Shown: positions 26,769-64,000 of the stretch, piece after piece
Numbering within the stretch: position 1 is the first letter of the stretch
Layout of the letters: every line of letters starts with the position of its first letter
NCBI GenBank assembly: GCA_044892505.1
Contig: CM097883.1
Span: forward strand, 77,562,001 to 77,626,000
DNA length: 64,000 bases
Direction: 5' to 3'
Source of the DNA: Schmidtea nova
Taxonomy: Eukaryota
Position numbers and translations under genes: made by a program
Notes under the pieces: model-generated
Told to the model about the DNA's origin: nothing
The model's database searches: none
The model's input: only the letters and a program-made list of their open reading frames with translations

Positions 26769-26819
26769 ATTTCACATTTATTAGTGATCACATGTGTACA
26801 ATCCAATAAAACCTTTATT

Positions 26820-27876: not shown

Positions 27877-27878
27877 TA

Positions 27879-29677: not shown

Positions 29678-29825
29678 TTCCTAAAGTTAAAGATAATTAA
29701 TACTTTAAATACATCTCTCCTTCCATCGCACAAGGACAGACCCTCCTCAGCAACACTCGATCAACCAAAATATTTTCATTCAGGTCACACATTCCTAATT
29801 TACTTTTAACCATACAGATTATCAA

Positions 29826-29875
<50 letters not shown>

Positions 29876-29905
29876 TATATACATGCATGCCATATAAAAT
29901 CATTG

Positions 29906-35708: not shown

Positions 35709-35711
35709 AAT

Positions 35712-37925: not shown

Positions 37926-37988
37926 TTTAACTTGATAGTTTGTTGTTTTATGAATATAAGGTAAAATATTTTCAAATAATTGTTCTTT

Positions 37989-39929
37989 TTATTTTTGATC
38001 AATTTCTGAATTCATTATATAATCAAGGCATTTATTAATTTCATCTTCATCTCCGACATATAGCATATCTCGCAGATCCTGTAATTTTTTCTCCCAACTT
38101 TTATCAGCTAAATTTGAATAATTATTGACATTTAAAATTTTTACCTCGTTTTTATATCCAGGAATTAGACCATAATCGACCAAGAATTCCTCATCCGCTA
38201 ATTGACCAATTTGACGTTGTATAAATTTTATTTGTACTTCATTTCCTTGGTATTTTGACATAATAAGCTTTCTCAAATCTTTTATCTGCCCATCTGGTTT
38301 AATAGAAAAGTGAAATTTTACGTCATCTCCATCGGTGGTTTCTACAAAAATATCAGGCAGACCTTTTGTCAATCTCAAAGCTTTTCCAAATATTTTCATC
38401 AGTTTGGCAATTTCATCATCTTGAGATTTATTGTAGAACTTTGAACATAAATTTAAAATATTTTTCAACTTTCTTTGGCTGAGTTGCATTTGAGATAGTT
38501 CGCTAATCCACTCTTTCAATTTTGGATTATTTGTTTCCATCCTCGTATACCATCTTTCTATTTTATTTATCAATAATATAGCTTTTTCGTTTGACAAGTC
38601 GTTTTTCGCTTTATCTCCAAGACTTTCTTTTTCATCGGTTTCTTTTTCGTACACCATACAAGAATCAATTTCCTCATCTGATTCGAATTTTGACATTAGT
38701 TTGTTTAATTTCTGTCTCATTTCCCGGAATTCATTTTCCATTTTCTCCTTAAACTCGTCCTTTTGAGCATAGGCTACATTAGCGTTGGATGATTCATCCT
38801 GAAATCTAATAGATCTCTTCAGTATTGGTCTGCTGAATCTTTCTGCATTCTTTGGGCATGATCGAGCCATGTGGCCATAACCTTTGCATGAATGACATTG
38901 AATTTGTCCATTTGTATTTACTTTATCTCGTTGCGGTGACGGAGATGTTGATGGTGATCGATTTTTAGAAAAGCAATTTCTGCTAATGTGACTCGTTTTC
39001 CCACATCGATAACATTCCAAGTTGCTATTGTTTGGTTTGTTTTCCACAAATATTCTTTTAGGACTACTATTTCTGCCATATTTGAACCAACATTGGTTCG
39101 AATAATGTCCGATTTTTTTGCAGTGCTCGCATACGACACTATTTGATCTCTCGGTTAGCTGGCTACCAAAAGCTGCTTTGTTAGTTTCTATCTTAGTACC
39201 TAATCTGGGAGAACTGATTGTTTGGATTGGTCTCTTGGATTCCCATTGATTTCTGACAGGTGTTATCGACCTTTCTCTCCTTTCAACATTTGCTGCGAAT
39301 GCTTCAGATTTTCTGGTGCTTTTTAAATTCAGTTCAATTTTCATTGCTTTCTTCACAAGTTCATCAAAATTTGCAAAATCTACATAACACAATGCCTTCT
39401 TTATTTCGGGATGAGCTCCAGTTATGAATTGATCTTGAAGCAGTTCTTTAACCTGCTTCACCATATCAACTTGCTCAGGCTTTGCTTCAAAGGCTTTATC
39501 TGCTAAAGTATTTAGATGATATGCAAACTCACTTACCGATTCCGTTGGATTTTGAACTCTGTTGTAAAATCTCTGTCGCATTATCCTTTTGATATCTCCA
39601 CCTACCAATTTCGTTGCCATTGCATCCTTCAATTTGGCCCAATCATTTCCAACTGTCCTTTTGTCCACTTGTTGCCAAGCTTCTCTTGCGGCTCCCTTTA
39701 AGTATAACGGAAATCTTTGTACCATTATTGCTTGTGACCATCCATAAGCTGCGGCATACATATAATAATCTCCCATGAAGTCTGCAAACTCAACCGGATC
39801 TCCACCATACTGATTCACCGGTAATTTTTGACAGCTTGCAAAATCAATCATCTCTCTATTGAGAGGCATAACAGCATTATCATTTGCCATTTGTGTTTGT
39901 TTCATACTTCTGAGGTTATATCGACTCAC
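37989..39929 (-). CDS. gag: Gag (capsid + 3 CCHC zinc knuckles) with a C-terminal ubiquitin-like extension
   Basis: Retrotransposon capsid motifs (FPLYLKGAAREAW, QNPTESVSEFA); CEHCKKIGHYSNQC, CYRCGKTSHISRNC, CHSCKGYGHMARSC; IFVETTDG...QLADEEFLVDYGL. The track start is GTG; first ATG at 39905. Confidence 0.93.
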   Translation of the reverse strand: MSRYNLRSMKQTQMANDNAVMPLNREMIDFASCQKLPVNQYGGDPVEFADFMGDYYMYAAAYGWSQAIMVQRFPLYLKGAAREAWQQVDKRTVGNDWAKLKDAMATKLVGGDIKRIMRQRFYNRVQNPTESVSEFAYHLNTLADKAFEAKPEQVDMVKQVKELLQDQFITGAHPEIKKALCYVDFANFDELVKKAMKIELNLKSTRKSEAFAANVERRERSITPVRNQWESKRPIQTISSPRLGTKIETNKAAFGSQLTERSNSVVCEHCKKIGHYSNQCWFKYGRNSSPKRIFVENKPNNSNLECYRCGKTSHISRNCFSKNRSPSTSPSPQRDKVNTNGQIQCHSCKGYGHMARSCPKNAERFSRPILKRSIRFQDESSNANVAYAQKDEFKEKMENEFREMRQKLNKLMSKFESDEEIDSCMVYEKETDEKESLGDKAKNDLSNEKAILLINKIERWYTRMETNNPKLKEWISELSQMQLSQRKLKNILNLCSKFYNKSQDDEIAKLMKIFGKALRLTKGLPDIFVETTDGDDVKFHFSIKPDGQIKDLRKLIMSKYQGNEVQIKFIQRQIGQLADEEFLVDYGLIPGYKNEVKILNVNNYSNLADKSWEKKLQDLRDMLYVGDEDEINKCLDYIMNSEIDQK

Positions 39930-40083
39930 TTTGATCTAAAATTCAAAATAAAAACAAATTAAATTTACTTGTCCTCAGCCAACTTTCAAACTTTCAAACT
40001 CAACTTCAAATTTTCAATACTTCTCTATCAACTTTATATCGAGTCGCAAATATCTATTTTCAATAATCTTTCACCAACGTTAG

Positions 40084-40101
40084 ATCACGTCGGGCTCACC
40101 A
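40084..40101 (-). other. Primer-binding site, tRNA-Trp type
   Basis: TGGTGAGCCCGACGTGAT; differs at one position from the complement of the common tRNA-Trp 3' end (TGGTGACCCCGACGTGAT). Starts 8 nt from the LTR. Confidence 0.85.
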
Positions 40102-40109
40102 ATAATATA

Positions 40110-41166
40110 TGTTGGGTTTTCTAATAACAAAAGATTGATCGTTGGTTACTCTGACTCCTCGTGTTCAGACAAATCAATAAACTCCGATTTTCCCAACGTA
40201 TATTTGTTATCACACTTTACACTTCTCACTCACAACCAATTTCACAACAATAAATTAATAATCAAACTTTTTCTCTATTCGATCAAGCCTCGCCTCGGAA
40301 GTCTTGACCCTGTGCGATCTGAAAGTAAATATCACCTTTTAATTCCTTTATACGACTCCTTGCCTTCGATTCGATGTGTTTGACTATTTTGAATTTAATT
40401 CACTCAACTCTTTGATTCACTTTTGATATCCTTTAATTTTCTTGATCTGACTTCTTTGATTCCTTAATTTTCCACTTCTCCCAATTTCACTTCTTCTCAC
40501 AATCTCCAAAACCTATTGTCGATTTCTTCTGCCCTACCTAAGGCTAACGCCGAATTTTCTGAATTTGGAGTCTCCTTATATACTCCAATAATCATTTTGA
40601 TTACCAGCGGTTTCCTTTGATATTATGATAAAATAACTGTAATTAATCACTTCTACCGTTCCTTCATGTTATTTCCGATCTTATTTTATTTACCCTCACT
40701 TATCCTGTTGATTCCATAATAGTTCTCTAAAAGTTAAACTGTTTATTTTTCTCGATTGCCGCGCTCGGTTGTTAAAATAATGTCTCTCCAAAAGTCGTTT
40801 TGTTTGTTTTGATAATCGTTCTCCAACGTTCAGTTTGTTTATTTTCCCTAATACCCGTGCTCGAGGTTTCTTCATCTCTCGGGTTCTCCATTGGCTCGGA
40901 CTTCCCATTAGCCCGGGTTTTCCATTAGCCAATTAATTAATTAATTAATGATTTCTGTTTTAACCTTTTTTACCTATTTTCAACCCTTTCAAGACCTTTT
41001 CTGACAATTTCTTGCTCACTATCTTCTTCGCCAATCCCTGATCTACACCTATTCCGTTTTCCAGCTTCGATTTCGATTCTCTTTCGTTTCGTTTCACTTC
41101 AATTTTCTTTTGATTCAAAATAATTCTAATTTAATTTAAGATAATTTTAATTTAACCACCTCAACA
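40110..41166 (-). repeat. Element 1 5' LTR
   Basis: Direct repeat of 26820-27876, TGTTG...CAACA. Confidence 0.97.
40575..40583 (-). promoter_or_regulatory. TATA box in the element 1 5' LTR
   Basis: GTATATAAG on the minus strand; the same motif sits at equivalent positions in the solo LTR (11033) and the element 2 LTR (54291). Confidence 0.6.
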
Positions 41167-41645
41167 TATTTACCCTAGTAAAATTAATTAAAAAATTTCA
41201 AAATGCATGTAGATATTGCATTTTGTATGTTTATTTTAGGAATAAATAATTTTATCATCAAAGCCTCACAATTCACATGTTCATAATAATTTTTAAAACC
41301 CCGATAAAGTATTTTGAAATTGGAAATATAAATGGTCTTTTTGCAAGTCTTCTTATGCTCAATAATTTTACTCTTCTCTTGAACTCGTGTACAGGGATGA
41401 CATGCAGTCTCTCCAATGTATGTGACATTACACTCATTACAAATAAGGATGTTAATATCGTTTTTTGGCAAACCGATTATCGTTTCAATAAAACCGACTT
41501 TAAACCGATTATTGTTTTTATCGTCATAGAAAAATATAATTATTTGTATTTAGGGCTTTGAGTATTTTGCCGCTTGAATGAGCAGTGGGTCACCTACTCG
41601 ATAAAAAAATATTCGTATATTAAAAAAGTAAATAAGTCAAATAAG

Positions 41646-48387: not shown

Positions 48388-49790
48388 TCATACACCTACA
48401 CCGTTGATGGTCAGTGTTTCTCCAACGTCAACATTAGATGTTGTAGATCTCCTTTTGCGATTATCCTTCTGTTCCAATATGCCATATTCCATCGATAATT
48501 GAATTCTCGCCGATTTGGTGGATTTAATTAGTTCAAAATTCTCTTCAATTTCCTCCAAATACGTGTCAGTTGGCCATTTCAACATTTGATTTCTCATTTC
48601 TGTCCTCGTATCGATTTCATCCACACAAATGTCTGTTTCATATGCGATTATTATTGTTCTTTCTGAGCTGGGAATTTCTGATGTAGATTCCATATGTTGC
48701 ATAGCTAGATATTCTTGTAACGAATATTTTCTCGATGGCCTTATCTTGGGCATTGATACATCGTCAATCCAAAGATTTTTGAGTCTCAGATATATCTTCC
48801 GGATACTTTTAACGTCCTCCAAAGCTGAGTGTATACACATTTGCAACTATTCTCCATATAGTTCCTTCATTACGGTTTTGAGTTTAAAATATTTCCGTCT
48901 TGTTACTTCTCTCAATTGCAAAGCTTGGGCTGTAGCTAGATCCCGAATACCATAAAGATGGTTAACCCATATCCCTAAGAATTGCAACTCTGCATGTAGG
49001 TCATGTCCTACTAGTATTTTCCCTATTGCCAGTTTTTAAATATCCTTCATTTCTTCGTACTGATCATTTGGTTTCGGCTGGCCACCTCCGTTATCCCATG
49101 GATGTTCGAGTGAAAATGTTTGAGTCTACCTCCGGGAGTCAAGAAGACATTTTTCACAATTTTCCCATGATAATTCATAATTGCCACCGCCAAGGGGATC
49201 ATCTTTACAGTATCATTGCTCCCATATTCAGCATCAATGAACAATATCATACTGCAAATTTTTTCCATATCCATTTTCTTCTGAACAAACGATAATTTTC
49301 TCTTCAACATTTCCTTTGTTATTTGTAGGAGTTCAGGATTTTCTTTCTGCATTGGATCCATGCTGGGTGCGCCATCAATTTCGTTTTTTATTCTTGTTTT
49401 CACTACAATTGGGGCATCCTCGTTTGCGGCTCACAATATTTTCCCTATTACTGGCTCCTTAATTTTCCATGAAGATAGCCTTTTGATTTCCTACCATATT
49501 TGACCATTTTCATCTAGCATCTGTACCGTCCCTCTGATTATATAGATATGGTATTCTTCTTTATTTGATATTTTGTTTTCATTTGGAATTTGGAATTTTG
49601 ATCTTCTGTTGATGTTGAATAATTGAAATTTCATTTATCTGTCATCCAACGTTAGGTAAATTGGGATTTGTAAGTTGTTGGTCATCTGGAATTTCCTTTG
49701 ACCGGCATTATTTCTCATCATCTTTAGGTCACTGTCGTGAGTTTCCCTGGCCCATTGTAGCTGTTCCATTTTTACTAAATGTTTATAAGT
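48388..49790 (-). pseudogene. REX4/ISG20-like DEDDh 3'-5' exonuclease ORF of a decayed relative of element 2
   Basis: ExoI ILFIDAEYG (about 49230); AVAIMNYHGKIVKNVFLTP; after a frameshift ExoII GKILVGHDLHAELQFL; GIRDLA; ExoIII HSALEDV (48814-48831). Several stops. TATA-like GGGGGTATATAAG at about 49966-49978 upstream. Confidence 0.85.
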
Positions 49791-50485
49791 TAAATTCATT
49801 TAATTTAATTTTGACTCTGGCTAAGATGGAGTACCCAAAGGATACTGTCTTAGTCGGTAGCGGAATAAAAAATATAAAATTACCGATTTAATTTAAAATT
49901 TTCTCAATTCTTTAAAATTTGTTAAGTCTCAAATTTGTTTTAAGTTTTATGATTTTTAAGTTTGTCTTATATACCCCCTTTTTAATTTTTTGAGATCCCT
50001 TTTTCTACCCCATTACTTTGTTAGTATTAACCAATCTAATCGATTTCCCAATTTTCCCATGTCGAAGAGTGTAGATTCACATGAAACATTGATAAAAGAA
50101 AATAATACACTATTGTTGAGGTCCAAGATTTTTAGATCTCAACGTACACTGGTGTAGACTATAGTATATAAAAATAAGATCAAGTTATTTGAAAAATTTA
50201 TTCAATAACAAAATTTACCGAAATCAAAAATCAAAAGTTATAAATCACACTTTCAAATCTGTATAACTGTTTTACAAAGTTTATTTAAAAGATATTTTTG
50301 CGTGTCCTACTGTGTGCTTGTTATTTACGTGAATGTATTATGTTTATTTTAGCTATAACAATTTCGTGTTGGACGTTTTTGTGCTGTCCGTAAATTTTGA
50401 GTTCTCGCAGGATTACCCTTTGAGAAAGTTTATGTCGCAAAATTTTGATTGAAATTGAATTTCAAAAAATTGTGGGCATTGTACT

Positions 50486-53400
50486 TATCATAATATTGTC
50501 AATGATAATTAACAATAATCGTGTTAATTATCGTTTTAATATTTTGTTTAAATAACTTATCATTTTATAATAAATATAATTTGAATATTAAGAATTCTTA
50601 TGCGTGCATTATAACAATGGCGTCACGATTGGAAGAATTGAATCTAGATGACAACATCAATGTCGAAATATGGTTAACCGCTTTTGGTGCGATGAGTCGA
50701 GCCAATAAGTGGGTCGACAGTGACAAATCAAGACAAATCATGGACAACTTCCTATCTGTATGTGGACTGAAGGCACTCACGAAAATCCAACATATGGCTT
50801 CTCCCAAATTGCTAGAGGAGATGACGTTCAGCGAGATCAAAGCCATGCTATTGAACCACACACAGCCGAAAAGCAAAGTTGTAATAGCTGAGAGAGCAAG
50901 ATTTTATCAGCTAAGACAGGAACCGAAAGAGAAATTAGCAGATTTCTATATCAGACTCAAGAAAGCTGCTATATATTGTGACTTCAAGAAATTGAAGGAA
51001 TCAACTGACCCCAACGAGGATATGCTCCTCATGGCATTGATTACGGGAATATATGACATCAATGCTAAGGAAAAGATTTTGCTGCAAATGAGTGCTGGGA
51101 TTCCAACATGCAACGAGATCCTCGCACAAATGCAAACATATGAGGAGATATCGACGTTCATATCCCTCCAGCATGGAACAAAACCTACAATTACCTCTAC
51201 GACCGATGAAATCAATTTCATTAAAAAGAAGAGATCAAACCTTGGAACATCAAGGAAATTCGAAGAGAAAGGAAATCAAAGGTGTCATTACTGTGATCGA
51301 ATACACGAGCCAAAGAAATCCCCGGCATATGGAAAGAAGTGTACGAATTGCGACAGAATGAATCATTTTGCGAAAGCCTGCAGATCTTCGACAAAGTCGA
51401 TACACGGAACATTCGCAGATCAGACATCGTCAGCCGATGAAAGTGATAGGCAGTACATCAACCAGTTCACTTCAAATAATATTACAAGTGACATTAACCC
51501 TGTCCTCTTAGGTACAACGATAGTGAAAATGCAAAAAGATACCGGCGCATCTGTATCAATCATATCATCCAAGATGTGGGAAGACATGGGAAGACCGAAG
51601 CTTGACAAGACAAGAAGAAAGCTTGAAGCCTACGATGGGCATATCATGCAATGCCACGGCTCGTTTCTGACAACTGTGGAATGGGAAAAGCAAGTGCTTC
51701 CGGTAACAATCACAGTCATTCAATCTATGAAGGACTTCGGACTAATAGGAATGGATATACTGCAGCAGACACGACACGGAATCTTACAGTGTCAAATCAC
51801 GAAGACAACAGAATCTCAAGTGTTACCAGCAATCAAAGGTATAAAAGCTTCTATGGATTTAATCGACGATGCGAAGCCCATGTGCTGTAAGGCTAGGCCA
51901 ATACCATTAGCTTTAGAAAACAAGGTCAACGATGAACTAATAAGGTTACAGCGATTAGGAGTAATCTCTCCGTGCACCAAACCGGTACTGAATTCTTCGC
52001 CCGTGGTTTGGGTAAAAAAGAGCAATGGCGACCTCAGATTATGCGTTGACTTCAAAGTGCATATCAATAAAAAGATAAAGACCGATGCATACCCCATTCC
52101 GAACGTCGAAACAATTTTCTCAAAACTAAAGAATGCCAACAAATTTGCAAAGCTCGATCTCACATCGGCATATTGGCAGATAGAATTAGACGATAAAGCA
52201 AAGGAGATATCGTGCATAAATACGACAAAAGGTATGTTTATTGTAAATAGATTACAGATGGGTATGAAGAACGCCTCTGCAATCTTTCAAAGGACAATGG
52301 AGCAAATACTTAAAGATATCAAAGGAATACTAATCTACCAAGACGACGTACCGATTTATGCCGAGAATGAAGAATCACTAAGGAATAGACTGCAAACGGT
52401 AAAATCGCGCCTAAAAGAGAAAAAAGTTACAATCAACCAAGCAAAGACTATTGAACTTACCAATAGTGTTTCCTTCTTGGGTTTCGAAATATCGTCAAAG
52501 GGTATCACACCTGATAAAAGTCTCGTCAGCAAAATAAACAATATAAAAGAACCAACATGCAAGGAGGAAGTAGAATCTTTCATCGGGTTAATTAATTACT
52601 TTGGTAGGTTAATTCCAAATTTTTCAGACAAAACAAGAGTAATCAATGAATTGAGAAAAAAAGGTGTAAAGTTCGATTGGAACAAGGAATGCTCGAACCA
52701 GTTCAAAGCACTAAAACAAGAAATTTCAACGTATCCAGTTGTGCAACCTTACAGCCTCGAAAAGGAAGCCACATTGACGACTGATGCATCTAAACACGCC
52801 ATAGCAGCTGTCCTAACCCAAGATGGCCATCCTGTGATCTACATTTCCAGAACACTTTCGGCTGCCGAAAAAAATTACTCTAACATAGAGAGAGAGGCTT
52901 TAGCCATAGTATGGTCTATATCTAGACTACAACACTTCTTATTAGGGAGGAAATTCAAGGTGAATACAGACCACCAACCACTCCAATCCCTATTCGGTAG
53001 CGAACCACCGATTCCAAGGCGAACATCCAATCGAATTTCAAGGTGGGCCATGCTGTTGATGCAGTACGATTATGAAATATACTATGTAATGGGAAAGCAG
53101 ATCCCGCATGCAGATGCACTATCAAGACTAAAATTCATCGATGAAAAGGAAGCAAACGAGGAAATCAAAACCAAGAACACATTGAGTGTTTTCACGGTCC
53201 AGTTTAGCGAGGGCTTATTAAATGCCTCAGAGGTCAGATTGGAAACATCGCTAAACGAGTTGGCCAGAGATATCATGCGTCGCATCAAGAAAGGCAATTG
53301 GTCGAAGTGCTCACAATCAGAAATGCCATTCAAGAAAATATCAGACCGACTAACAATTGAAGATGGACTGATTTACCACGGGTCACGTCTATTCATTCCA

Positions 53401-54270
53401 CCAAAACTAAGGAAGAAATGCATTGACATAGCACACAATGAGACACATTCTGGTCTACAATCAACATTTTACCGGCTAAAGGCATCATCTTGGTGGCCTG
53501 GAATCCACGGAGACATCGACAACTTCATTAGGTCATGTGCAATTTGCAAGAAACTACATCCTCGCCCAGAGAAGAGCATTCACAAATGGCCAGAAGCGAA
53601 ACCATTCCAAAGAGTACATATGGATTGGGCCCACATCAAAGAGGTGGGCGACGTGCTCATTATTGTAGACGCTGGTTCGGGATGGATTGAAGCCTTCAAG
53701 ACATCCGATAAAACGAGTAAGTCAGTGATCACGTGCTTACGAACTGTTTTCACCAGGTTTGGAGTCCCGGAATGCATCGTCTCGGATAATGCCCAGGAAT
53801 TCACTTCACATGAGCTAAACGCGTGGATCGACAGCCTAGAGCTCCAATAATGTCTAAATTTCAACAAGGCCAGGACATCTGGTACAAAGCCAGTGAGGAT
53901 GTGGAACCAAAAGAGGGCGAATTTATCATGACTAAGGGCAACAACACTTCATACATCACCATCGAGAGTCAGAACGACAATGTGACGTTGGTTAGCAATA
54001 ACCAAATCTCAGACCGCCGGCAGATTCAGGAAGTCAAAGACGCACAACTTACGCAAGAAAAAGTACCAGCCGAATCCGACATTAGACGCAGTGGGAGACA
54101 TCGATCGAAACATAGATGTGGGTGCTGCTGATGAAAGGATATCATAATATTGTCAATGATAATTAACAATAATCGTGTTAATTATCGTTTTAATATTTTG
54201 TTTAAATAACTTATCATTTTATAATAAATATAATTTGAATATTAAGAATTCTTATGCGTGCATTATAACA
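50486..54270 (+). mobile_element. Nested short-LTR Ty3/Gypsy (Mag-like) element with a deleted integrase
   Basis: Identical 131-bp LTRs at 50486-50616 and 54140-54270; 5-bp TSD GTACT; PBS-like TGGCGTCACGA at 50618; purine tract GAAAGGA before the 3' LTR. Confidence 0.95.
50617..53850 (+). CDS. pol: Gag-Pol (Gag, CCHC, PR, RT, RH, truncated INT)
   Basis: MASRLEEL start; CTNCDRMNHFAKAC; PR KDTGAS; RT YQDD; RH TDAS; INT H..HSG..C..C, VHMDWA, VSDNA, then loss of the catalytic-E region. The 3' remnant is ORF 53823-54131. Confidence 0.93.
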   Translation: MASRLEELNLDDNINVEIWLTAFGAMSRANKWVDSDKSRQIMDNFLSVCGLKALTKIQHMASPKLLEEMTFSEIKAMLLNHTQPKSKVVIAERARFYQLRQEPKEKLADFYIRLKKAAIYCDFKKLKESTDPNEDMLLMALITGIYDINAKEKILLQMSAGIPTCNEILAQMQTYEEISTFISLQHGTKPTITSTTDEINFIKKKRSNLGTSRKFEEKGNQRCHYCDRIHEPKKSPAYGKKCTNCDRMNHFAKACRSSTKSIHGTFADQTSSADESDRQYINQFTSNNITSDINPVLLGTTIVKMQKDTGASVSIISSKMWEDMGRPKLDKTRRKLEAYDGHIMQCHGSFLTTVEWEKQVLPVTITVIQSMKDFGLIGMDILQQTRHGILQCQITKTTESQVLPAIKGIKASMDLIDDAKPMCCKARPIPLALENKVNDELIRLQRLGVISPCTKPVLNSSPVVWVKKSNGDLRLCVDFKVHINKKIKTDAYPIPNVETIFSKLKNANKFAKLDLTSAYWQIELDDKAKEISCINTTKGMFIVNRLQMGMKNASAIFQRTMEQILKDIKGILIYQDDVPIYAENEESLRNRLQTVKSRLKEKKVTINQAKTIELTNSVSFLGFEISSKGITPDKSLVSKINNIKEPTCKEEVESFIGLINYFGRLIPNFSDKTRVINELRKKGVKFDWNKECSNQFKALKQEISTYPVVQPYSLEKEATLTTDASKHAIAAVLTQDGHPVIYISRTLSAAEKNYSNIEREALAIVWSISRLQHFLLGRKFKVNTDHQPLQSLFGSEPPIPRRTSNRISRWAMLLMQYDYEIYYVMGKQIPHADALSRLKFIDEKEANEEIKTKNTLSVFTVQFSEGLLNASEVRLETSLNELARDIMRRIKKGNWSKCSQSEMPFKKISDRLTIEDGLIYHGSRLFIPPKLRKKCIDIAHNETHSGLQSTFYRLKASSWWPGIHGDIDNFIRSCAICKKLHPRPEKSIHKWPEAKPFQRVHMDWAHIKEVGDVLIIVDAGSGWIEAFKTSDKTSKSVITCLRTVFTRFGVPECIVSDNAQEFTSHELNAWIDSLELQ

Positions 54271-55034
54271 GTACTGATATCTACATCAGTTTATATACTA
54301 AAATTTTCTACTCTAATTGTAAATAATTATATTTAAATATCATTTTTATCTTTTAAATTTCCGATGATAATTACATTTGAAATGTCAATGATTAATATTT
54401 CCCTATTTGAAATGTCCTAATTTAAATATCATTTTTATCTTTTTAATTTCCGATGATAATTACATTTGAAATGTCAATGATTAATATTTCCCTATTTGAA
54501 ATGTCCTAATTTGCCCTTTAATATTTTCCATATTGTCATACAAAATTTAAAAATAAAATAATAATATAAATTCTTTCCATATTGCCATTTTTATACAAAC
54601 CAATATGTAAAATAAAAAAAAATAAAATAATAATATACAGAATAAAATAATAGCAAGGTAAAAATACAGTGGATAAAACAATAAATATACAGTGAATCAA
54701 ATCATAAATTTGTAATTTCATATACATAGTTGTTTGGGGATTCGTTGTCTTTGATTGTTATGATTACAAATAAGATAGGCTCACAGTATGTTAAAATCAC
54801 ATTGATTTGATTGATCTTTGAGATGTTTGAGGATGGGAACTGTATTATTGTGTCATTGATCTTTGTGGGGTTCTGACTGGTGTTGAATCAGTTGAAAAGT
54901 CATAGATTGTTAATCAATATTCACCAAAGATGATAATGTCGAGAATTAAATGCCCAATGGATATTGTTGTCTTGATCTACCGTATTGAGATTGATTGATA
55001 TTTGCTTCTTCTTGAACGGGCTCTGCATAAATAT

Positions 55035-57008
55035 TTACTCTGTACCTGCCGCCCCCACACTATAGTTTTCGGATAAGAGGAATGTATTGATGGGCTTACC
55101 TTCATCATCCAACATTCCTCCCCGGGCCGTCAAAGTAATGTCCTCATTACCCTTGTCACACAATATTAAATCAATTCTTTTCTCTTTTATTTGAATTGTT
55201 GTTTTTCGAAATCCATTTTTTATCGCAAGGTTTATCGTCTCCTCGTGCTCAATTTGTCTTCCAAAATGAGTGCAGAGATCTTTTTCTGAGACATATTTCT
55301 TGTCTTTGTCTATTATGAAATCTGATTCTTCTGGTTCTGTCCAGTCGGCTAACATTTCAACGTTTGGTTCGGGTCCGATATCCTCTTCCATTATGTTGTA
55401 TTTATTACTTGTTGATGGTTCTTCATTATCTTCTTCCATTTTGATGTCGTTGCTGCTGGTTGAAGGTTCTTCTATGTTCTCATCTGCTGAGAAATATTCA
55501 TCATCTATATCACATTCGTCCATTCTTTCATATAGAATATTTTGAATTTTGGGTTCTGCTTTGATTCCTCTAGTTGGAGCGATAAGTGGTATTTCTTCTT
55601 TTATGATCATTAGTTCATCGTCGTCACTGTTCATGAGCTCTTCCATGAATGACTTTTTTGGTTTGTTATGATTGGTTTTTGTTGATTCCCCATGGGACGG
55701 CTCCATGCCTTCTCCATCTTCATATTCACTTTCTATCTCACCTTCTGCTTCGCTCTCTGTTTCGTTTTCGAATATTGTTTCTAGTTGTTCTTCTCCATTT
55801 GCTTGTTTCCTTTTAAGAAGTGTTGCGGAATCCCATTTGACAACTTCTTCCCATTTATTTTCTGTGATATCGTAGATAACTTTTAATAGCATTGTGGTGA
55901 TCTTTGTTGAGAATGGTTCTGGTTGTCTCAATATATCATTTAACTTTTTATCTTTATGCCAACTTTTATGGTAATTGATTACCTGGTAAGCCAAATTTGA
56001 TATTTTTATTTTTGGTGGGGCCACGTTTTTTACAAAAGAACACATGAATCGATCCTGTGCCATTTCTCTTATGCCCATAATGTTGTCCAGATCTATCGTC
56101 AATAGTTTTAACTTATCTATGATGTTGAATCCAACTATGATCTTTCCATAGAGAATGTTTCGAATTTCATTTAAGGCTTTATATTCGTCTTCATTTCCAA
56201 TTATGTTTTCTTTTGTAGCTTTAGTTTTTTCCGTGTAGAATTTTTCTACTTTCGTTCTTGGGGTGATGAATTTGTTATACAGAATTGCTCCTTTTCTGCT
56301 TCTGATACAAATTTCCACTGGTCTGAGATTTTTGTTTATATCTTGAACTACTTTTATACCCACCATTACAGTTAATGAATGCCTTTCTTCTGTCGTTAAT
56401 TCTTGATTCGTGAATGATATCTTCTGGTTGATCATATCTTCATTTATTTGTAGGATTGAATGTATTGGGTTTAATTTTATGAACGGATTTGGGATTGTCG
56501 GGATATATAGCACTTCGATTGCTATCACACATGGTAGGTTATTCATCTGCACTGTCAGCTCATTGAAATCGTTTGACATACTTCTGTCTTTTCTTATTAA
56601 CTTGATAACTGCTGAACAGTTGCTTGTGACAATTAACGGGATTTTATTTTGACATATTGCAACTTCTGTTTTTGTCATGTGGAATATTAATCTGTGAGGG
56701 ATTCTCTTGTTTTCGGCAACTTCTTTGTCGACGTTTTGGTATTTGTCGAAGGTTCCAATAAGCTCTTTGAGTTTCACTCTTCGGGCCTCATTGAATTTTA
56801 TCAGATGCATTTCCCGTTCTTCTATTTCGACTTTCATGTCGTTTGGGATACATATTTGATTTGGGAAACTGCGAATTGTAATTGGGGTTCCATCAGTACA
56901 TATCTTGTTCTGTAGATTTTTGTAAAAACTCATGTTGAGTTTGTTTATAAAACAAGTGTATTTCTGGTAGGTTCTTGATGGGTTGAAATGAGGTTGATTT
57001 TGATTCAT
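55035..57008 (-). CDS. 657-aa accessory protein containing a catalytically inactive DEDDh exonuclease-like domain and an acidic tail
   Basis: Open frame. The domain at about 55850-56380 aligns with the 48-49 kb exonuclease (GAILYNKFITP, GKIIVGFN, GIREMA), but the D-x-E, D and H-x4-D positions are replaced. MNQNQ at 57008 is the likely start. Confidence 0.75.
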   Translation of the reverse strand: MNQNQPHFNPSRTYQKYTCFINKLNMSFYKNLQNKICTDGTPITIRSFPNQICIPNDMKVEIEEREMHLIKFNEARRVKLKELIGTFDKYQNVDKEVAENKRIPHRLIFHMTKTEVAICQNKIPLIVTSNCSAVIKLIRKDRSMSNDFNELTVQMNNLPCVIAIEVLYIPTIPNPFIKLNPIHSILQINEDMINQKISFTNQELTTEERHSLTVMVGIKVVQDINKNLRPVEICIRSRKGAILYNKFITPRTKVEKFYTEKTKATKENIIGNEDEYKALNEIRNILYGKIIVGFNIIDKLKLLTIDLDNIMGIREMAQDRFMCSFVKNVAPPKIKISNLAYQVINYHKSWHKDKKLNDILRQPEPFSTKITTMLLKVIYDITENKWEEVVKWDSATLLKRKQANGEEQLETIFENETESEAEGEIESEYEDGEGMEPSHGESTKTNHNKPKKSFMEELMNSDDDELMIIKEEIPLIAPTRGIKAEPKIQNILYERMDECDIDDEYFSADENIEEPSTSSNDIKMEEDNEEPSTSNKYNIMEEDIGPEPNVEMLADWTEPEESDFIIDKDKKYVSEKDLCTHFGRQIEHEETINLAIKNGFRKTTIQIKEKRIDLILCDKGNEDITLTARGGMLDDEGKPINTFLLSENYSVGAAGTE

Positions 57009-57471
57009 CTTCGTTTTTGATTGGTATCGAATTGATTTCTTGATATATTGATTTGAGAGATGATTAATAAGGTTTTGACGGTTTAACAGAGATATAATTG
57101 AATATATTGAGATATATGGGTAATTGTCGTAACGATTCGATTGGTCTATAGAATTGACGAGATTGATTGGGTATTTTGTATAGAGATAATTAGTAGGGTT
57201 TTTTGATTGTTTGTTGTGACAGTTTAAAAAAGAGATGATTGTATTTATTGAGATTTTTGAATGGTTGTCGCAATGATTTGATTGGTGTGTAGAATTCACG
57301 AGATTGATTGGGTTTTCGGAGTTTGTTGGAACTTGCTTTGTTTTGCTCGTGTATTCTTTTCTAAAAATAAAGGATAAAGTTTTTTGTTTAAGGCGTATTG
57401 TCGGTTTAACCTTATACGCTATATAAATACGAATATATATGATTTTAATTATTATTATTGACCAAAACGTA

Positions 57472-57960
57472 TTATACCAATGTGGATTTTGTATATTCAC
57501 CTGGTATATATTTGCCCAAATGGAAATACCCTGGTACATTTCTGACCAGTCGGCTCCGATACCGCTGCCTTTTCCGTTTGTACTTTTTATAAATATGTAC
57601 GCTAGTTATTAAAGCTAAAACTGCTAATGCTATTATTGATGTTGTGATGACATAATAAGGCCAATGTGGCTTTTTATCCTCTTTACGAAATGCTTGTAAT
57701 TCCTCTAAGTTATGTATCACTATTGGTCTTCCTTGCCTTATTTTGATAGGTTCTTGTTTTTGTTTTTTGGCATTATATTGTTTTTGGAATTTGGCTATTC
57801 CAGTGCTTGTTGGTATTTCGTTTGTATGTGGTGTGGTATTTAGTATATTATCTGATGTCGTTGTTGTGCTTTTTATTCTATCGAGTGTTTTTGTTATGTT
57901 ATGATTTTTTGTTATATTCTTGGGTAATTGTTCTGTTTTTATTTTTTTTGCATCTCCATG
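57472..57960 (-). pseudogene. Frameshifted stalk + TM + basic tail of the post-integrase membrane protein
   Basis: Thr-rich stalk in a shifted frame (KSTTTTSDNILNTTPHT), then PHWPYYVITTSIIALAVLALITSVHIY-KKYKRKRQR. Confidence 0.7.
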
Positions 57961-60805
57961 TTGTTGTATCTGTGTTTCTCTGTATGCAGATTCTGTATAT
58001 TGTATTAGGTGTTAGTTTTGAGAAATTAATATAGCTTCCTCTTTCGATTTCGTTGGTTGTTCTGTCGTCTTTTCCTTTTATCATCTTTGGATTTTTCCCA
58101 TTCGTTGTTTGCATGTATATATCAATTACTCCTCTATTTATGATAAATACTCTAACTTCGTTTGTTGCTATTTTTATTAATATTTTGTCAAATTCTATTG
58201 TTTCGGTTGAGCCAACGAATGTTATGATTGTTAAGAAGATAGCTGATATTATTATTTTGTTATGAGATCTTAGATTATACTTGTGAGGTTTATCTATCGT
58301 GACCTCGGCTTCCGCCAACTTGCATCTGTTGACATGTACTACTATTGGATCCTCGTTTTTATGTTTTTGTAAGTGTAAATTCTCATTTATTACTTTTACT
58401 ACCTCATATGGACCTTTATATGGTCTTGCTAGTTTTGTTGTCTTTCCCTTTCCTACTTGTGGTGACATAAGTCTAACCTTATCACCTACTTTAAAGTTGT
58501 GTGGTTTACTATTTTTGTCGTAATCGGCTTTGTACTGTTCTTGTCTATATTTGACTTTTAGATTGGCTACTTTATACACTTCTTGCAGTTTTTCCTGCAT
58601 TAGTGTGACATAATCTGGTGCATCTAAATATTGTGATACTCGAGGTTCAAATATTGTATCTATTGGTGTTGCTGGTTCTCTTAAAAACATTAAATAATAC
58701 GGTGAATACCCTGTTGTTTCGTTTGGAGTGATATTATGAATGTATGTGCATTGACTTATGTATTCGTCCCAATCATTTTGATTTTTTCCTACAAAAACAG
58801 CTAGTCTGCTTAGTAATGTACCATTAAATCTTTCTACTAGTCCATCAGTTTGAGGGTGATACGCTGTTGTGTTAATCTTTTGCATATTAAAAATATTAGC
58901 TACTCTTTTTATTAATTCGCTAGTAAAATTTGTTCCTTTATCTGTTAATCTTTTGGGTGTGCCTATCTTGAAAATAATTTTTTCTATAAGCAATTTAGCA
59001 ACTGTTTCTGCTGTTTCGTCTTTTGTTGGAAATGCTTCTGCCCATCTAGTAAAATAATCACTAAATACTAGTATATGTTTATTCCCATTAATTGTAGTAG
59101 GTAATTTACATAGAAAATCCATTGCACATAGTTCCATTGGTGATGTCGTTGCTGGAATGGGATGTAACGGCGCTTTTGTTTTTGTACCTGTATTTTTTCT
59201 TGTTGCACATATTGTACACGCGTTACACCATCTCTTAACATCTTTCTTTAATTCTTCCCAGTAATATTTTTGTAATAATCTACTTGCTGTCTTTCTAAAT
59301 GATAAGTGACCTCCTAATGCTCCATCGTGATATTGTAGTAGGAGTATTTGTCTTAATTTCTGAGGTACTACTATTAGTTGCTTACCATTGAAATCTTCTA
59401 TTACTACTAATTTCTTTGATATTTTATACTTTGAATTGTTTTCTTTTCTGATTTCATTCCTTATTTTACTGATCTCTGGGTCTTTCATCTGTTCCTCATA
59501 TATATCGATTGGCTTTTCTGCTACTAGTGCAAATATTTCAAGTGCTCCTAATTCTGGTATTCTTGATAGTGCATCTGCGTTTTTATTTATTCTACCTGGT
59601 TTATATATAATTTTTAGGTGCATGTCTTGTATTTTCATTGCCCATTTAAGTAATCTACTTGATGTATCTTTATGTTTCCATAAGCCTTCTAATGGTTTAT
59701 GGTCAGTTCTTATTATCACTTCAGTCCCATATATGTATGGTTTGAATTGTTTTAGGGCGAATACTATTGCGTAACATTCTTTTTCTATTGTTGAATACCT
59801 CAGCTGTGCTCCTTTTAATGTTTTACTGGCATATGCTATTACGTAATCTTTCCCTTTTTCTTCTTCTTGGCCTAAGACTGCTCCTACGGCTTTCCCGCTG
59901 GCATCCGTCATTACTATAAACTGTTTTTCGAAATCTGGGTATCTTAACACTGGTGCTGTTATCAATCTTTCTTTTAGTTTATTGAATGCTTCTTGGTGTT
60001 CCTTTGTCCACTTCTTTTGTATCTTGTTAACTTTGCTGTTAATTTCTTGTACTATTAACACATTTTTGCATTCTCCTTTTGTTCTAATTCCCTTTGTTAG
60101 TTCTATTATCGGTGATGCTATCTTTGCATAATCTTGTATGAATTTACGATAGTACCCTCTTAGACTTAAAAACCCTTGTACTTGTTGTACTGTTTTTGGT
60201 ATTGGGAATTTCTTTACAACTTCTAATTTTTCTGGATTTGGTTTTATCCCTTCTACTGTAACTATATGCCCTAGAAATAACGCCGAAGGTTCTGCCCATT
60301 TACACTTAGTTGGTTTAATTTTAATTTTTGCTTTTCTTAGTCTCTCGAGTACATTTGTTATATCTTTTAAGTGTTCCTCAAATGTTTTTGATGATATTAG
60401 TATATCATCCATGTAAACTGCGCAATGTTGTACATTTACTAATATTGTGTTCATTAGGCGCTGAAATGTAGCTGGTGCGTTAGTTAACCCGAAAGGTAAT
60501 CGTGTATACTCATATAAACCATCCTCGATAACAAATGCTGTTTTTTCCGCATCCCCTTCCTCCATTTGAATTTGCATATATCCCTTATTTGCGTCAATAA
60601 CTGAAAAATACTTAGCATCCCTAAATTTATCGTATTGTTCTTGTGCTTTTGGGAATGGGTATGAATCTTTTACTGTTACATCATTTAATTTGCGATAGTC
60701 AATGCACATTCTTATTTCTCCGTCTTTCTTTTTAACGGGTACAATGGGTGATGCCCACTGTGAAAAACTCTGTTTTATTACACCTGCATCGTTTAGTTCT
60801 TTGAT
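57899..60805 (-). CDS. pol: RT-RNaseH-integrase fused in frame to a signal peptide + FN3-like ectodomain
   Basis: YMDD, TDASG, MDFLCKLP / TDKG / VERFN, GPYEV, then IIISAIFLTIITFVGS and SKLTPNTIYRICI. Joined to the upstream ORF across a single in-frame TAA at 60806-60808. Confidence 0.93.
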   Translation of the reverse strand: MKELNDAGVIKQSFSQWASPIVPVKKKDGEIRMCIDYRKLNDVTVKDSYPFPKAQEQYDKFRDAKYFSVIDANKGYMQIQMEEGDAEKTAFVIEDGLYEYTRLPFGLTNAPATFQRLMNTILVNVQHCAVYMDDILISSKTFEEHLKDITNVLERLRKAKIKIKPTKCKWAEPSALFLGHIVTVEGIKPNPEKLEVVKKFPIPKTVQQVQGFLSLRGYYRKFIQDYAKIASPIIELTKGIRTKGECKNVLIVQEINSKVNKIQKKWTKEHQEAFNKLKERLITAPVLRYPDFEKQFIVMTDASGKAVGAVLGQEEEKGKDYVIAYASKTLKGAQLRYSTIEKECYAIVFALKQFKPYIYGTEVIIRTDHKPLEGLWKHKDTSSRLLKWAMKIQDMHLKIIYKPGRINKNADALSRIPELGALEIFALVAEKPIDIYEEQMKDPEISKIRNEIRKENNSKYKISKKLVVIEDFNGKQLIVVPQKLRQILLLQYHDGALGGHLSFRKTASRLLQKYYWEELKKDVKRWCNACTICATRKNTGTKTKAPLHPIPATTSPMELCAMDFLCKLPTTINGNKHILVFSDYFTRWAEAFPTKDETAETVAKLLIEKIIFKIGTPKRLTDKGTNFTSELIKRVANIFNMQKINTTAYHPQTDGLVERFNGTLLSRLAVFVGKNQNDWDEYISQCTYIHNITPNETTGYSPYYLMFLREPATPIDTIFEPRVSQYLDAPDYVTLMQEKLQEVYKVANLKVKYRQEQYKADYDKNSKPHNFKVGDKVRLMSPQVGKGKTTKLARPYKGPYEVVKVINENLHLQKHKNEDPIVVHVNRCKLAEAEVTIDKPHKYNLRSHNKIIISAIFLTIITFVGSTETIEFDKILIKIATNEVRVFIINRGVIDIYMQTTNGKNPKMIKGKDDRTTNEIERGSYINFSKLTPNTIYRICIQRNTDTTTWRCKKNKNRTITQEYNKKS

Positions 60806-63800
60806 TTATCGTTTTATTTCCTCTCTTAACTTGTATGGTACGCTGTATGGTCTTTGTTTTATTGGTCTCGCATTACCTGTATCTATTACATGTTTGATTA
60901 TATCGGTATCCCCTAGATCAAATTCGTGTTTTGCAAAAACATCACTATATTTATCTATCAATGTTTGTAGTTGTGCTTGTTGTGTTATTGTTAAGTATTC
61001 ATTATTAATTTTTACTTTGTCATATGATTTTATATTATTTATCTTACTAGGTTCGACTACTCCCTTGCCATTATTATTCATCACGCTTATCTCACTGACT
61101 TCGTACGTTTTTTCTAATTCACCTTTGAATAATTTTCCCAATTTCGTACCTTTGTGTATTTTAACATTACTTTTTTCATAATTTGCTATTCTCAATGGTA
61201 TTATTCCCTTTCTCGGAATTACGCATTCATTGGTTAGCATTATATTCTGATTTTGTATAATTGCCGTTTCTGGCTCAAAAATAAAAGTGTCCTCACTTTT
61301 GATGTTAACTCTTAAGGGAATTATATGATCGCATTCATATTCTAATTCAAATGATTCTAATGCAACAACTTCTGTGAACTTGGATTTATGTTTAATTGCT
61401 TTTCTCTTTATCGTATTATCTGTTAAATCTATAATGCAATTTTCTAACTTGTTGAGTATATCGATTCCCAATATACATATGCTATTACATTCTTGCACCA
61501 CTTTAAATATGTGGTTTATTACCTGTTCTGGTGTTTCGACTATTAGTTCTATGTCTCCCTTTAGTGGAATACGATGTGCTGATAACGATACTACTTTATC
61601 CGTTGTGCTCATAATATTTCTTTTTTGATCATCTGTCAGTTGATCTTCTCTAATTAAGGATGTTGCTGCTCCTGTATCTACTAATGCATTTATGATTATA
61701 TTGTTTATAATTATTCTAAGTCTTGGTCTTGCTTCGTTTGCTGCATCTAATCGTTCCATTGTTTCGACTTCTAAGCTATAACAACCATATATCTTTTTAG
61801 GTTCACAATGACAATTCTTGTTTTCTCTAGGAATTTTTATTTCTATATTTTCTTGTAGCTCTTTTAGTTGTTCTCTTTGGTTTTCAAATAGTCCTTGTTG
61901 TGGTACATTTCCTTCATGTGATATATGCGCTTTAATTATTTCCTCATCGTTTTCATCATCTACCAATAATTGCCTTTCTTCATTCCTTTGGACTTTTATT
62001 AAACGTATTTCCTTGTCGTGTTTCGCCGTAATAAGATATTTAGCTATAAATGGGCACAAACATGCTAATAATTTATATGAATTTCCAAATACTTGTTTTA
62101 GCTGTTTCAGTGATACTAGAGAAGAACATATCATTTTTAGTAATGCAACCGTATAATATATACCTAAGATTGTAGAAAACATGTTTCCAAGGACTGCAAA
62201 GTATCCCCATATGCTATATAGTACTTTATATGCTACTTTTTTGAAGTATTCTTTTGATAATAACACATCAAAGTTGTAATTTCCTCCGTAACTTCCTTCG
62301 ATAACTCTGTTAACCATTATTGAAAGTACTCTTTCTTTTTCGTTTGGAAATAGCATGTGTTTTCTTGCACTTTCTATAGCTTCTCTCGTATATATACCAT
62401 TACTGTCCATATCGTTGATTTCTTTAAACTCTAATCTTTTTTCTAGCTCTATGAGTTCTAATTTGAGTGGTTTCATTGCCTCTTTTCTATCTGACATAGA
62501 TATCCACATTTCGTCATTTATTTTGTATAATGGGTCTAATAGGTTAGTGCATTTTTCTATTTTTCTCGGTATATATGTTTTTTCTGTTAATATTCTAGTA
62601 ATTGGTTGAAGGTATACCCTTTCTCCTTTATATATTACCGGTAATTCATTAGTGCACTGATTATTTGTTGCTAATGATACACTAACAGGTTTACATTGAA
62701 ATGTCTGTATCACTTCTCCTACTATCCTTGCAAATGTTCCTTCTTCTGAGAAGATTATTGGTGCCATTAAATCTTGGTTTGTTACCGCCACTGCCATTTT
62801 TGTCCTCAATATTTCTCTGTTGAGTTTGCAATCGCTCATAATTGTTGATTGATATACTTTATCTAGTTGTACTAGTTGGTTATGATAGAAAAAATCGATT
62901 TTATTGTTGAAGTATGATGCAAGTTTGACGTCGAATTTATTTACTTTTTGTTTTGCATCTTTGACTTCTTCTTTGCTTATGTATATCCCTTCATAATTAG
63001 TTTGTATTATTTCCTTACCACATTTTACACTTTTCCTTTTACTAACAAACCTCATTGCTTCGTTTTCAGATTCTGACATATATATTGTTGGTGTATCTTT
63101 TTCTTGTACAATTGTTGTTTTCCTTTTTTGATCTCTCACCCTTTTTGAGTCTACTTCTGTGAACTGTTTTCCTTTGATTTCCCTAAATTTTAATGATTTT
63201 AATTTTGTTAACTGACAATCATATTTATCTATTTTGTATATTAGCATTGATTCTCCTGTATCGCAATAAGATTCTTCTAATGTACAAAATTTGTATATCA
63301 TCATTTTCTTTGAGCTGCTGTCGAATGATGCTTTGAACTTTCTCAGTTCTACCATGTAGTGTCTCCTTACTACAACATTACTCAGTTTTTCGCCCCATAT
63401 TGTATATTCTCCTCCTTCACAATATCCTCCTTTTGATGTCCATCCCACGACATTTATATCTTGTCTCATTTTTGCTCCTATCCTTGCTTCTAATTCTATT
63501 CCTTTATGACCGCTATATTTTACTTTCTTTGTTTTAAATGCATCTTCACACTCTATTGGCGACAATATTACTGCTTCGGGTGTCCACGTAGGTTTTAACA
63601 CTGTTCTTGCCCCAACATGACATATATATGCTTCCTCCTGATACTTTACTATGCACTCTTTAGCCTCTGTATGAATAAAGTCTGATTCTTGATAAACATG
63701 GAATATTTGAGGCTCTGACATGATTAATTTAGTTGGATTTGCTTCAGGGCAATTTTCAACATCCAACAGTGAGTATTTTTGTCCCCACTTTGGATTTTGA

Positions 63801-64000
63801 CAATCATATGCTACCATTGCATTGCCCCCCTTGATTAAATCTAATAACAAAGTGATTATGACTATTACTATGGAGGTTATCGATTTACTCTCTGTCTTTG
63901 GTTTTACTGTTGCTTTCTTTATTAATTGTTTTATTACATCATCTGTATCACTCTCTTTATTCGTCGTATCTTTATCATATAATACTTTCCATCCTCCTTT
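60806..64000 (-). CDS. BH2-like motif + signal/TM + chuvirus-G-like glycoprotein + TM + protease + RT start (open at window edge)
   Basis: The frame is open from 64000: KGGWKVLY...SIVIVIITLLLDLIKGGNA-MVAYDC..YSLLDVENC...CTNELPV...WGYFAVLG (TM)...ALVDTGA (PR)...IKQRPY. Confidence 0.92.
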   Translation of the reverse strand, partial: KGGWKVLYDKDTTNKESDTDDVIKQLIKKATVKPKTESKSITSIVIVIITLLLDLIKGGNAMVAYDCQNPKWGQKYSLLDVENCPEANPTKLIMSEPQIFHVYQESDFIHTEAKECIVKYQEEAYICHVGARTVLKPTWTPEAVILSPIECEDAFKTKKVKYSGHKGIELEARIGAKMRQDINVVGWTSKGGYCEGGEYTIWGEKLSNVVVRRHYMVELRKFKASFDSSSKKMMIYKFCTLEESYCDTGESMLIYKIDKYDCQLTKLKSLKFREIKGKQFTEVDSKRVRDQKRKTTIVQEKDTPTIYMSESENEAMRFVSKRKSVKCGKEIIQTNYEGIYISKEEVKDAKQKVNKFDVKLASYFNNKIDFFYHNQLVQLDKVYQSTIMSDCKLNREILRTKMAVAVTNQDLMAPIIFSEEGTFARIVGEVIQTFQCKPVSVSLATNNQCTNELPVIYKGERVYLQPITRILTEKTYIPRKIEKCTNLLDPLYKINDEMWISMSDRKEAMKPLKLELIELEKRLEFKEINDMDSNGIYTREAIESARKHMLFPNEKERVLSIMVNRVIEGSYGGNYNFDVLLSKEYFKKVAYKVLYSIWGYFAVLGNMFSTILGIYYTVALLKMICSSLVSLKQLKQVFGNSYKLLACLCPFIAKYLITAKHDKEIRLIKVQRNEERQLLVDDENDEEIIKAHISHEGNVPQQGLFENQREQLKELQENIEIKIPRENKNCHCEPKKIYGCYSLEVETMERLDAANEARPRLRIIINNIIINALVDTGAATSLIREDQLTDDQKRNIMSTTDKVVSLSAHRIPLKGDIELIVETPEQVINHIFKVVQECNSICILGIDILNKLENCIIDLTDNTIKRKAIKHKSKFTEVVALESFELEYECDHIIPLRVNIKSEDTFIFEPETAIIQNQNIMLTNECVIPRKGIIPLRIANYEKSNVKIHKGTKLGKLFKGELEKTYEVSEISVMNNNGKGVVEPSKINNIKSYDKVKINNEYLTITQQAQLQTLIDKYSDVFAKHEFDLGDTDIIKHVIDTGNARPIKQRPYSVPYKLREEIKR

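Follow-up and report, generated by a model that had tools for sequence, protein, structure and literature searches.

A compact planarian Ty3/gypsy retrotransposon family carries a Bcl-2-like domain and a gB-type fusion protein in one frame with Gag and Pol

We analyzed a 64,000-nucleotide stretch of the Schmidtea nova genome (GenBank assembly GCA_044892505.1, contig CM097883.1, positions 77,562,001 to 77,626,000 of the forward strand; here called the window) together with the DNA adjoining its upper end (L011). The element that lies across this boundary, element 2, is a young copy of a many-copy Ty3/gypsy (Metaviridae) long terminal repeat (LTR) retrotransposon. About 14.1 kb long without a nested insert, it is a compact relative of Burro, though not Burro proper, and is close to Smed_errantivirus_3. 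The layout has already been described in planarian flatworms, and element 2 mostly confirms published observations, because the in-frame order Gag, ubiquitin-like domain, BCL2, Env and protease (PMC6431247) and gag-env-pol relatives (PMC13524379) are in print. We consider it likely that the single-frame polyprotein of this 14-kb element family passes twice through the endoplasmic reticulum (ER) membrane and is cut into the parts of an enveloped particle. The window also contains a diverged relative, element 1 (26816-41189, minus strand), with LTRs of 1,084 bp at 99.1% identity and a tRNA-Trp primer.

An earlier note, made from the letters of the window alone, had described an open frame running from the residues KGGWKVLY through a signal, a glycoprotein, a transmembrane segment and a protease into reverse transcriptase (RT). 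This frame was borne out: on the minus strand, 1,064 codons are open from KGGWKVLY (64000-63977) to position 60809, with a stop at 60808-60806, and Pfam identified the domains, including the Pol order protease-RT-RNase H-integrase. The RT-RNase H-integrase frame (60805-57902, minus strand) has the identical phase. The stop, which had been read as a lesion, is missing in all 20 other copies examined. The claim that it is the only break holds from Env to RT but not for the whole copy, which has a second frame break near 57945, behind the integrase. Beyond the window, the frame extends about 900 codons more upstream. The features of element 2, from its 5' to its 3' end, are as follows.

L011 5047-3836, minus strand: 5' LTR, 1,212 bp, then CTAT on the plus strand; 99.5% and 99.2% identity to the two parts of the 3' LTR (BLAST).
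L011 3833-3816, minus strand: tRNA-Phe primer site, 18 nucleotides, complementary to host tRNA-Phe(GAA).
L011 3586-2450, minus strand: Gag with one CCHC knuckle (zf-CCHC E 5e-4); 25% identity over 623 amino acids (aa) to the Gag of the element-1 family.
L011 1936-1700, minus strand: weak ubiquitin/SUMO-like domain (PF11976 E 0.014).
L011 1465-1436, minus strand: AT-hook-like motif (E 0.39).
L011 about 1339-965, minus strand: Bcl-2-like domain (PF00452 E 6.2e-7), with a degenerate BH1 at 1165-1136.
63965-64000, minus strand: end of the Bcl-2-like domain (BH2), the remainder lying beyond the window in L011.
63818-63880, minus strand: internal signal-like hydrophobic stretch, presumably cleaved (hydropathy 2.12).
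62210-63817, minus strand: ectodomain of a fusion protein of gB type, as in herpes simplex virus (HSV), or Monjiviricetes type (Monjiviricetes_fusion PF24664 E 7.6e-88).
62123-62209, minus strand: Env membrane anchor (hydropathy 1.63), which aligns with the element 1 anchor.
61442-61735, minus strand: aspartic protease (PF00077 E 1.2e-7), motif LVDTGA at 61684-61667.
60806-60808, minus strand: premature stop, private to the window copy (missing in 20 of 20 other copies).
59624-60736, minus strand: RT and RNase H (PF00078 E 1.5e-35; PF17917 E 2.7e-37).
58316-59368, minus strand: integrase with zinc finger, core and SH3-like end (PF17921 E 1.7e-19; PF00665 E 1.2e-7).
58199-58255, minus strand: second signal-like hydrophobic stretch, in frame with the integrase (hydropathy 1.79).
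57945-58198, minus strand: probable fibronectin type III (FN3)-like ectodomain (LxPxTxYxI motif; profile match to the Tie2 FN3 region, E 0.004; ESM fn3 0.88, a lead only).
57472-57944, minus strand: Thr-rich stalk, second membrane anchor (57654-57598; hydropathy 2.23) and basic tail, in a single frame with Pol in most other copies.
55035-57605, minus strand: accessory frame of 856 codons between stops; it contains a degenerate ISG20-like DEDDh exonuclease domain (about 56400-55860) and has an acidic tail.
55115-55123, minus strand: polypurine tract, identical in other copies.
50114-55114, minus strand: 3' LTR, split by a nested env-less gypsy element (50485-54270, plus strand).
50110-50113, plus strand: target-site duplication CTAT, repeated beyond the 5' LTR at L011 5048-5051.

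The adjoining DNA contained what the earlier note had predicted there: a Ubl (ubiquitin-like) domain, as a weak match; Gag; and, upstream of Gag, a primer site. A BH1-like segment, expected about 45 codons upstream, is present but starts 51 to 55 codons before KGGW. The matching 5' LTR was found with CTAT beyond it, although the 3' LTR spans 55114-50114 rather than the proposed 55027-50114. Element 2 therefore has the hallmarks of an LTR retrotransposon, with two LTRs bounded by TG...CA, a primer site, a polypurine tract and a short target duplication, CTAT flanking both ends. The nested element in its 3' LTR is 3.8 kb long, has a GTAC duplication and two identical LTRs of 131 bp and, being inserted within that LTR, is younger than element 2. 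The stop, the frame break and this insertion are private lesions that disable the window copy.

All 40 scored matches to the Env DNA were at 99-100% (523 candidates), and Env is about 99% alike and in frame among copies. The Bcl-2-like region gave 150 of 150 scored protein matches at 82-100%, in a family of at least 150 matches, and 29 of these 150 best matches lie in open frames of 3,054-3,082 codons. The 20 non-self copies examined were the first rows of the Env DNA matches, a sample that leans to close copies. Full LTR pairs were present in 17 of them (16 with at most six mismatches, 3 identical); a 4-bp target duplication was found in 12 by a strict script and in 5 more by eye, with 3 left uncalled. 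From the near-identical LTR pairs, target duplications and intact frames, we conclude that the element-2 family has been recently active with a single frame from Gag to tail. Across the 20 copies (L014-L053), internal regions are about 99% alike while the LTRs are 73-100% alike or unalignable, a divergence that suggests LTR swapping or recombination between subfamilies. One subfamily, comprising 5 of the 20, has other LTRs and an accessory frame 68% alike, with Env still at 99%; the window LTR can be aligned with 13 of the other LTRs over the last ~440 bp only, at 77-81%.

The earlier note had also argued that the env-before-pol fusion and the Bcl-2-like domain are inherited. We found the fused Gag/Bcl-2/Env/Pol layout in frame in five families: those of element 2 and element 1, two further ones and a giant ankyrin-bearing element. 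As had been noticed, element 2 is diverged from element 1 (35% protein identity over 399 aa and 31% over 721 aa) and has more A on the sense strand (43-44% versus 37-38%). Element 1 has stops at 37989 and 35712, but these are not a general feature of its family, in whose members a single frame of 3,345 codons is open (2 of the 19 matches at 95% or more). The same search also turned up families with frames near 3,390-3,440 codons, and one sampled copy from each of three such families had the same domain order. So did the giant element, which has three knuckles and ankyrin repeats behind the integrase; the Bcl-2-like domain is common to it and element 2, with 34% identity in Env and 44-48% in Pol. 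Element 2 is a replicate of element 1, as claimed, but one of common descent rather than of independent origin. Could the env-pol fusion and BH2 motif instead stem from a single nested insertion, from chimeric assembly or from a motif that arose by chance? The window does contain nested insertions, and the Pfam Bcl-2 score (PF00452, E 6.2e-7, 30.3 bits) is just under the cutoff of 31.4. However, the same in-frame order recurs in at least 150 matches and in five families, the LTRs and target duplication are matched, and the independent database proteins P0007, P0023, P0049 and P0053 join the Bcl-2-like and fusion domains. The family copies and in-frame sister families refute this explanation, to which we give next to no weight.

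The Bcl-2-like domain is not in every relative: P0002, P0009 and P0010 had no Bcl-2 match. P0002, a related Env-Pol polyprotein of 4,844 aa, has seven protease-like stretches along with ankyrins and C2H2 fingers, and the bacterial label on P0010 is probably due to a mis-binned contig. In an RT-RNase H tree of 13 rows, whose two outgroups lack env and sit on long branches, element 2 fell in an open fork with the giant element. Behind the polyprotein of the giant element lies a full TRAF-like frame (L101 619-2046, minus strand; RING, zinc fingers and MATH; 476 codons), which recurs at many dispersed sites. The MATH frame sits 3' of the polyprotein, and stretches taken downstream of two MATH-domain frames accordingly contained none.

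Sequence and structure comparisons agreed on the Bcl-2 assignment. As a single sequence, the domain gave a gapless but weak alignment with Bcl-xL over 70 residues (E 0.035). A profile of 10 element-borne sequences, with zero host sequences, matched Bcl-xL at E 1e-7, and the 60 listed of its 98 matches were all Bcl-2 family. Compared with host-type Bcl-2 loci of the same genome, the element-borne profile matched at 95.9% probability. Single-sequence AlphaFold prediction of the region gave a pLDDT of 43 and was not used; a model predicted from the element-borne alignment reached 70.8. When this model was compared with 48,161 chains (VIA), the top 30 matches were all Bcl-2 family (best Z 8.8, root-mean-square deviation 3.6, 113 residues), and Foldseek gave a Bcl-2 match at E 4.6e-4. 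The predicted structure supports a helical Bcl-2 fold with BH1 and BH2 regions present. Because the Z score is modest for a helical domain, the assignment rests on the agreement of the two kinds of evidence. In a tree, 11 element-borne domains lay on one side of a branch and 10 host-type loci on the other (support 95/94); the alignment is short and the branches long, the giant element was omitted, and host loci were labelled only by having no element similarity nearby. This separation is consistent with one capture, and a single capture from a host gene is likely. Divergent host-type Bcl-2-like loci, some of them close paralogues and with no element similarity nearby, are L059, L061, L065, L073, L079 and L082.

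The BH1 Trp is kept in 1 of 11 element domains versus 9 of 10 host-type loci, and the BH1 Gly in 0 of 11 versus 2 of 10; the loss of Gly is no proof of a loss of function, because most host-type loci are without it too. The Trp-Gly-Arg of Bcl-xL BH1 aligns with Lys-Asp-Lys in element 2, and the pro-survival BH1 NWGR groove signature is lost. These BH1 residues matter for BH3 binding, and their replacement speaks against a functional apoptosis inhibitor that would protect the host's stem or germ cell from death while the element transposes, in the manner of viral Bcl-2 proteins. So do the production of the domain 1:1 with Gag and the lack of any C-terminal mitochondrial anchor besides the Env signal. 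Even so, a whole fold is predicted, viral Bcl-2 proteins are among the near-tied structural matches (A179L, Z 8.5; CNP058, Z 8.3), BH2 is kept, and the IAP of Burro1 protects planarian stem cells, according to a secondary citation in PMC13465017. Purifying selection points the same way: ratios of nonsynonymous to synonymous substitution (dN/dS) between families, rough because dS is near saturation, were about 0.26 for the Bcl-2-like region, 0.25 for the tail behind the integrase, 0.07 for Env and 0.01 for RT, so the region and the tail appear, roughly, to be under such selection. We regard an anti-apoptotic function as possible but doubtful. A decoy, or a degenerate module for interactions, is the more likely role of the domain; a classical death blocker that binds BH3 is the less likely one.

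Past the integrase end, the frame continues for 281-287 codons in 18 of the 20 other copies (one stops at 114 and one was unscored), encoding a small ectodomain that is preceded by a signal-like stretch and followed by a Thr-rich stalk, an anchor and a basic end. The signal-ectodomain-anchor ending is also present in the element-1 family, two more families, the giant element, P0002, P0009 and P0010; by hydropathy, all of these and the element-2 family have two signal-plus-anchor pairs. P0020 has the signal, and its end is less clear. The motif LxPxTxYxI is invariant in five of five aligned tails, two of them from one family, and a profile of the five matched the FN3 region of Tie2 (E 0.004 as the sum of three stretches). 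For two unalignable tails, ESM ranked fn3 first at 0.88 and 0.85, which are leads only, the tool's line being 0.9; Pfam fn3 matched one of the five tail members (E 0.086). On this evidence the ectodomain is probably FN3. A homologue search with the tail found none at E 0.01 among 243-776-aa proteins, a set that is uninformative on fused forms. The accessory frame matched ISG20 (E 6.7e-5) and is homologous to DEDDh exonucleases (ISG20/REX4). Its catalytic positions (four acidic residues and a His) are altered in element 2, whereas two sister families retain the Exo I and Exo III positions in their accessory frames. We found no literature report of a membrane protein fused behind the integrase, or of a degenerate ISG20-like accessory frame, in a survey that did not cover Grohme 2018, Lee 2026, Repbase or figures. 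The absence of such reports is thus provisional, both for the second signal, probable FN3 and anchor behind the integrase, which occur in four compact families and the giant one, and for the degenerate ISG20-like frame.

The surroundings of element 2 contain traces of older elements. At 48700-49500 of the window (minus strand) lies what is left of the accessory exonuclease frame of a sister family, decayed but with an Exo I motif that looks intact; element 2 appears to have inserted into an older relative. A ubiquitin-like frame just outside the 5' LTR (L011 5428-5910, minus strand; PF00240 E 3.8e-11) may have belonged to the older element into which the insertion went. Elsewhere, very large tandem tRNA arrays lie on C1 near 566.9 Mb and on C3 near 128.0 Mb (L084, L094). 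A tRNA-Phe pattern gave 2,591 matches, the listed ones at a 240-bp period, and a tRNA-Trp pattern 1,984 at a period of about 282 bp; these arrayed tRNAs are the primers of elements 2 and 1, respectively.

How might the polyprotein be used? Its order is Gag, weak ubiquitin-like domain, Bcl-2-like domain, signal, gB-type fusion protein, anchor, protease, RT, RNase H, integrase, second signal, probable FN3 and second anchor. By general membrane-protein biology, Gag and the ubiquitin-like and Bcl-2-like domains would stay cytosolic, likely tethered by the first signal. Env would enter the ER lumen, its N terminus freed by signal peptidase, and protease, RT and integrase would return to the cytosol on its tail. 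Signal peptidase cleavage behind the first signal would sever Pol from Gag, and therefore Pol would have to be packaged through Env, not as a Gag-Pol fusion. Gag, Env and Pol would be made 1:1:1, and no frameshift would be involved. From the second signal onward a small type I membrane protein would be produced, which would likely serve for attachment, or as an accessory surface protein, alongside the gB-type fusogen. In class III fusogens such as herpes gB, receptor binding is often left to a separate protein, and for this reason the terminal protein is a candidate attachment factor. The Bcl-2-like domain would have entered this arrangement by one likely host capture, followed by the loss of the BH1 groove signature.

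Several points weigh against this scheme. The topology comes from hydropathy alone, with the Env anchor at only 1.63, and expression, cleavage, particle formation and fusion are predictions from sequence. A search of sequencing runs listed four holders, all from a single study, and no RNA holder, and it was given no weight as evidence. Splicing could uncouple parts of the polyprotein in vivo. The ubiquitin-like match is under the Pfam cutoffs (E 0.014), the structural match of the Bcl-2-like model is modest (Z 8.8, 3.6 over 113 residues), and most host-type Bcl-2 loci are also without the BH1 Gly. FN3 support is weak by all three measures (profile E 0.004 over three stretches; ESM below 0.9; Pfam one of five, E 0.086), and tails of different families barely align by BLAST. 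Finally, the RT-RNase H tree does not join the Bcl-2-bearing elements as one clade.

The glycoprotein of the earlier note deserves a separate comment. It is homologous to gB-type proteins (PF24664), but the ectodomain (residues 61-600) has no N-glycosylation sequon, and the label therefore rests on homology. The missing sequons would fit an element that copies inside the cell, whose Env and terminal membrane protein no longer build infectious particles and persist as relics or anchor assembly at the ER. The decayed accessory nuclease of the element-2 family would fit as well, as would the fact that particles or transfer are not in evidence. Strong conservation of Env between families (dN/dS about 0.07), its near identity and open frame among copies and its kept cysteines argue otherwise, and we consider such a retreat rather unlikely. 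An equally uncertain extension of the scheme we favor, unlikely as a whole, is an infectious enveloped retro-like virus whose two surface proteins are cut from one polyprotein, the gB-type fusogen preceding Pol and an FN3 attachment protein, itself captured, following the integrase, with Pol riding on the Env tail and a Bcl-2-fold decoy released from Gag. Such a virus would resemble flavivirus and bunyavirus polyproteins in its assembly logic, with Pol on the Env tail, unlike retroviral Gag-Pol.

Two papers, PMC6431247 and PMC13524379, were the only directly relevant ones that our literature survey gave. PMC6431247 describes Burro/GYPSM1 with Gag, with Ubi/SUMO-like, BCL2-like and dUTPase-like domains and with an Env, akin to mononegavirus fusion proteins, that stands in frame; according to that paper it is the first in-frame env between gag and pol. 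Element 2 shares with Burro/GYPSM1 one polyprotein of Gag, Ubi/SUMO-like (weak in element 2), BCL2-like, in-frame Env, protease, RT, RNase H and integrase. It differs in size (14 kb and about 3,070 aa, versus more than 30 kb and 4,873-5,140 aa), in its single CCHC knuckle and in having no MATH, BIR or ankyrin match (Pfam, E 0.1-1, any frame). A 106-aa insert between protease and RT is common to elements 2 and 1; a phmmer search of it against PDB for a dUTPase-like stretch gave no match. PMC13524379 reports GAG-ENV-POL elements in flatworms, nematodes and bryozoans, six of them from S. mediterranea at 14.5-18 kb. Its flatworm HSV/gB-type errantiviruses share with element 2 an Env between gag and pol and a gB-type ectodomain between signal and anchor, and are similar to it in their listed span of 14.5-14.8 kb. 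By a count made by eye, the Env segment of Smed_errantivirus_3 and that of element 2 agree at about 176 of 246 positions (72%), and Smed_errantivirus_2 looks, by eye, like the relative of element 1. For these rows the supplement lists no LTR or tRNA, both of which are clear in element 2. In the main text there is no mention of Bcl-2, Burro, fibronectin, ubiquitin, polyprotein, in-frame, fused or exonuclease (the "bcl" matches shown are "subclades").

Farther afield, nematode env-before-pol elements captured a mononegavirus-type class III fusion protein into an LTR element (Sacco 2022, as cited in PMC13524379), and PMC7642597 describes the same capture, of a chuviral glycoprotein, in mosquito BEL/Pao elements. 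Both differ from element 2 in their hosts, and the mosquito elements also in superfamily. We take the latter to be the elements named Anakin. Viral Bcl-2-fold proteins (A179L, CNP058 and BHRF1; the NF-kB-blocking A52, N1, A46 and B14) likewise place a Bcl-2 fold on a genetic parasite, but the domain of element 2 is embedded in a Gag-Env polyprotein and in sequence resembles cellular Bcl-xL (17-21%, structural alignment) more than it does most viral ones.

These results show that the module of ubiquitin-like domain, Bcl-2-like domain and Env is not tied to giant size, as it also occurs in compact 14-kb families, apparently through a single capture. To learn whether a Bcl-2 domain carried by a transposon influences cell death in the host, the compact family is a simpler object than a 30-kb Burro. 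The membrane protein conserved behind the integrase and the implied topology bear on Pol packaging and target-cell choice in gag-env-pol elements. If the infectious reading with two surface proteins were true, a transposon could move between the pluripotent stem cells of a regenerating animal.

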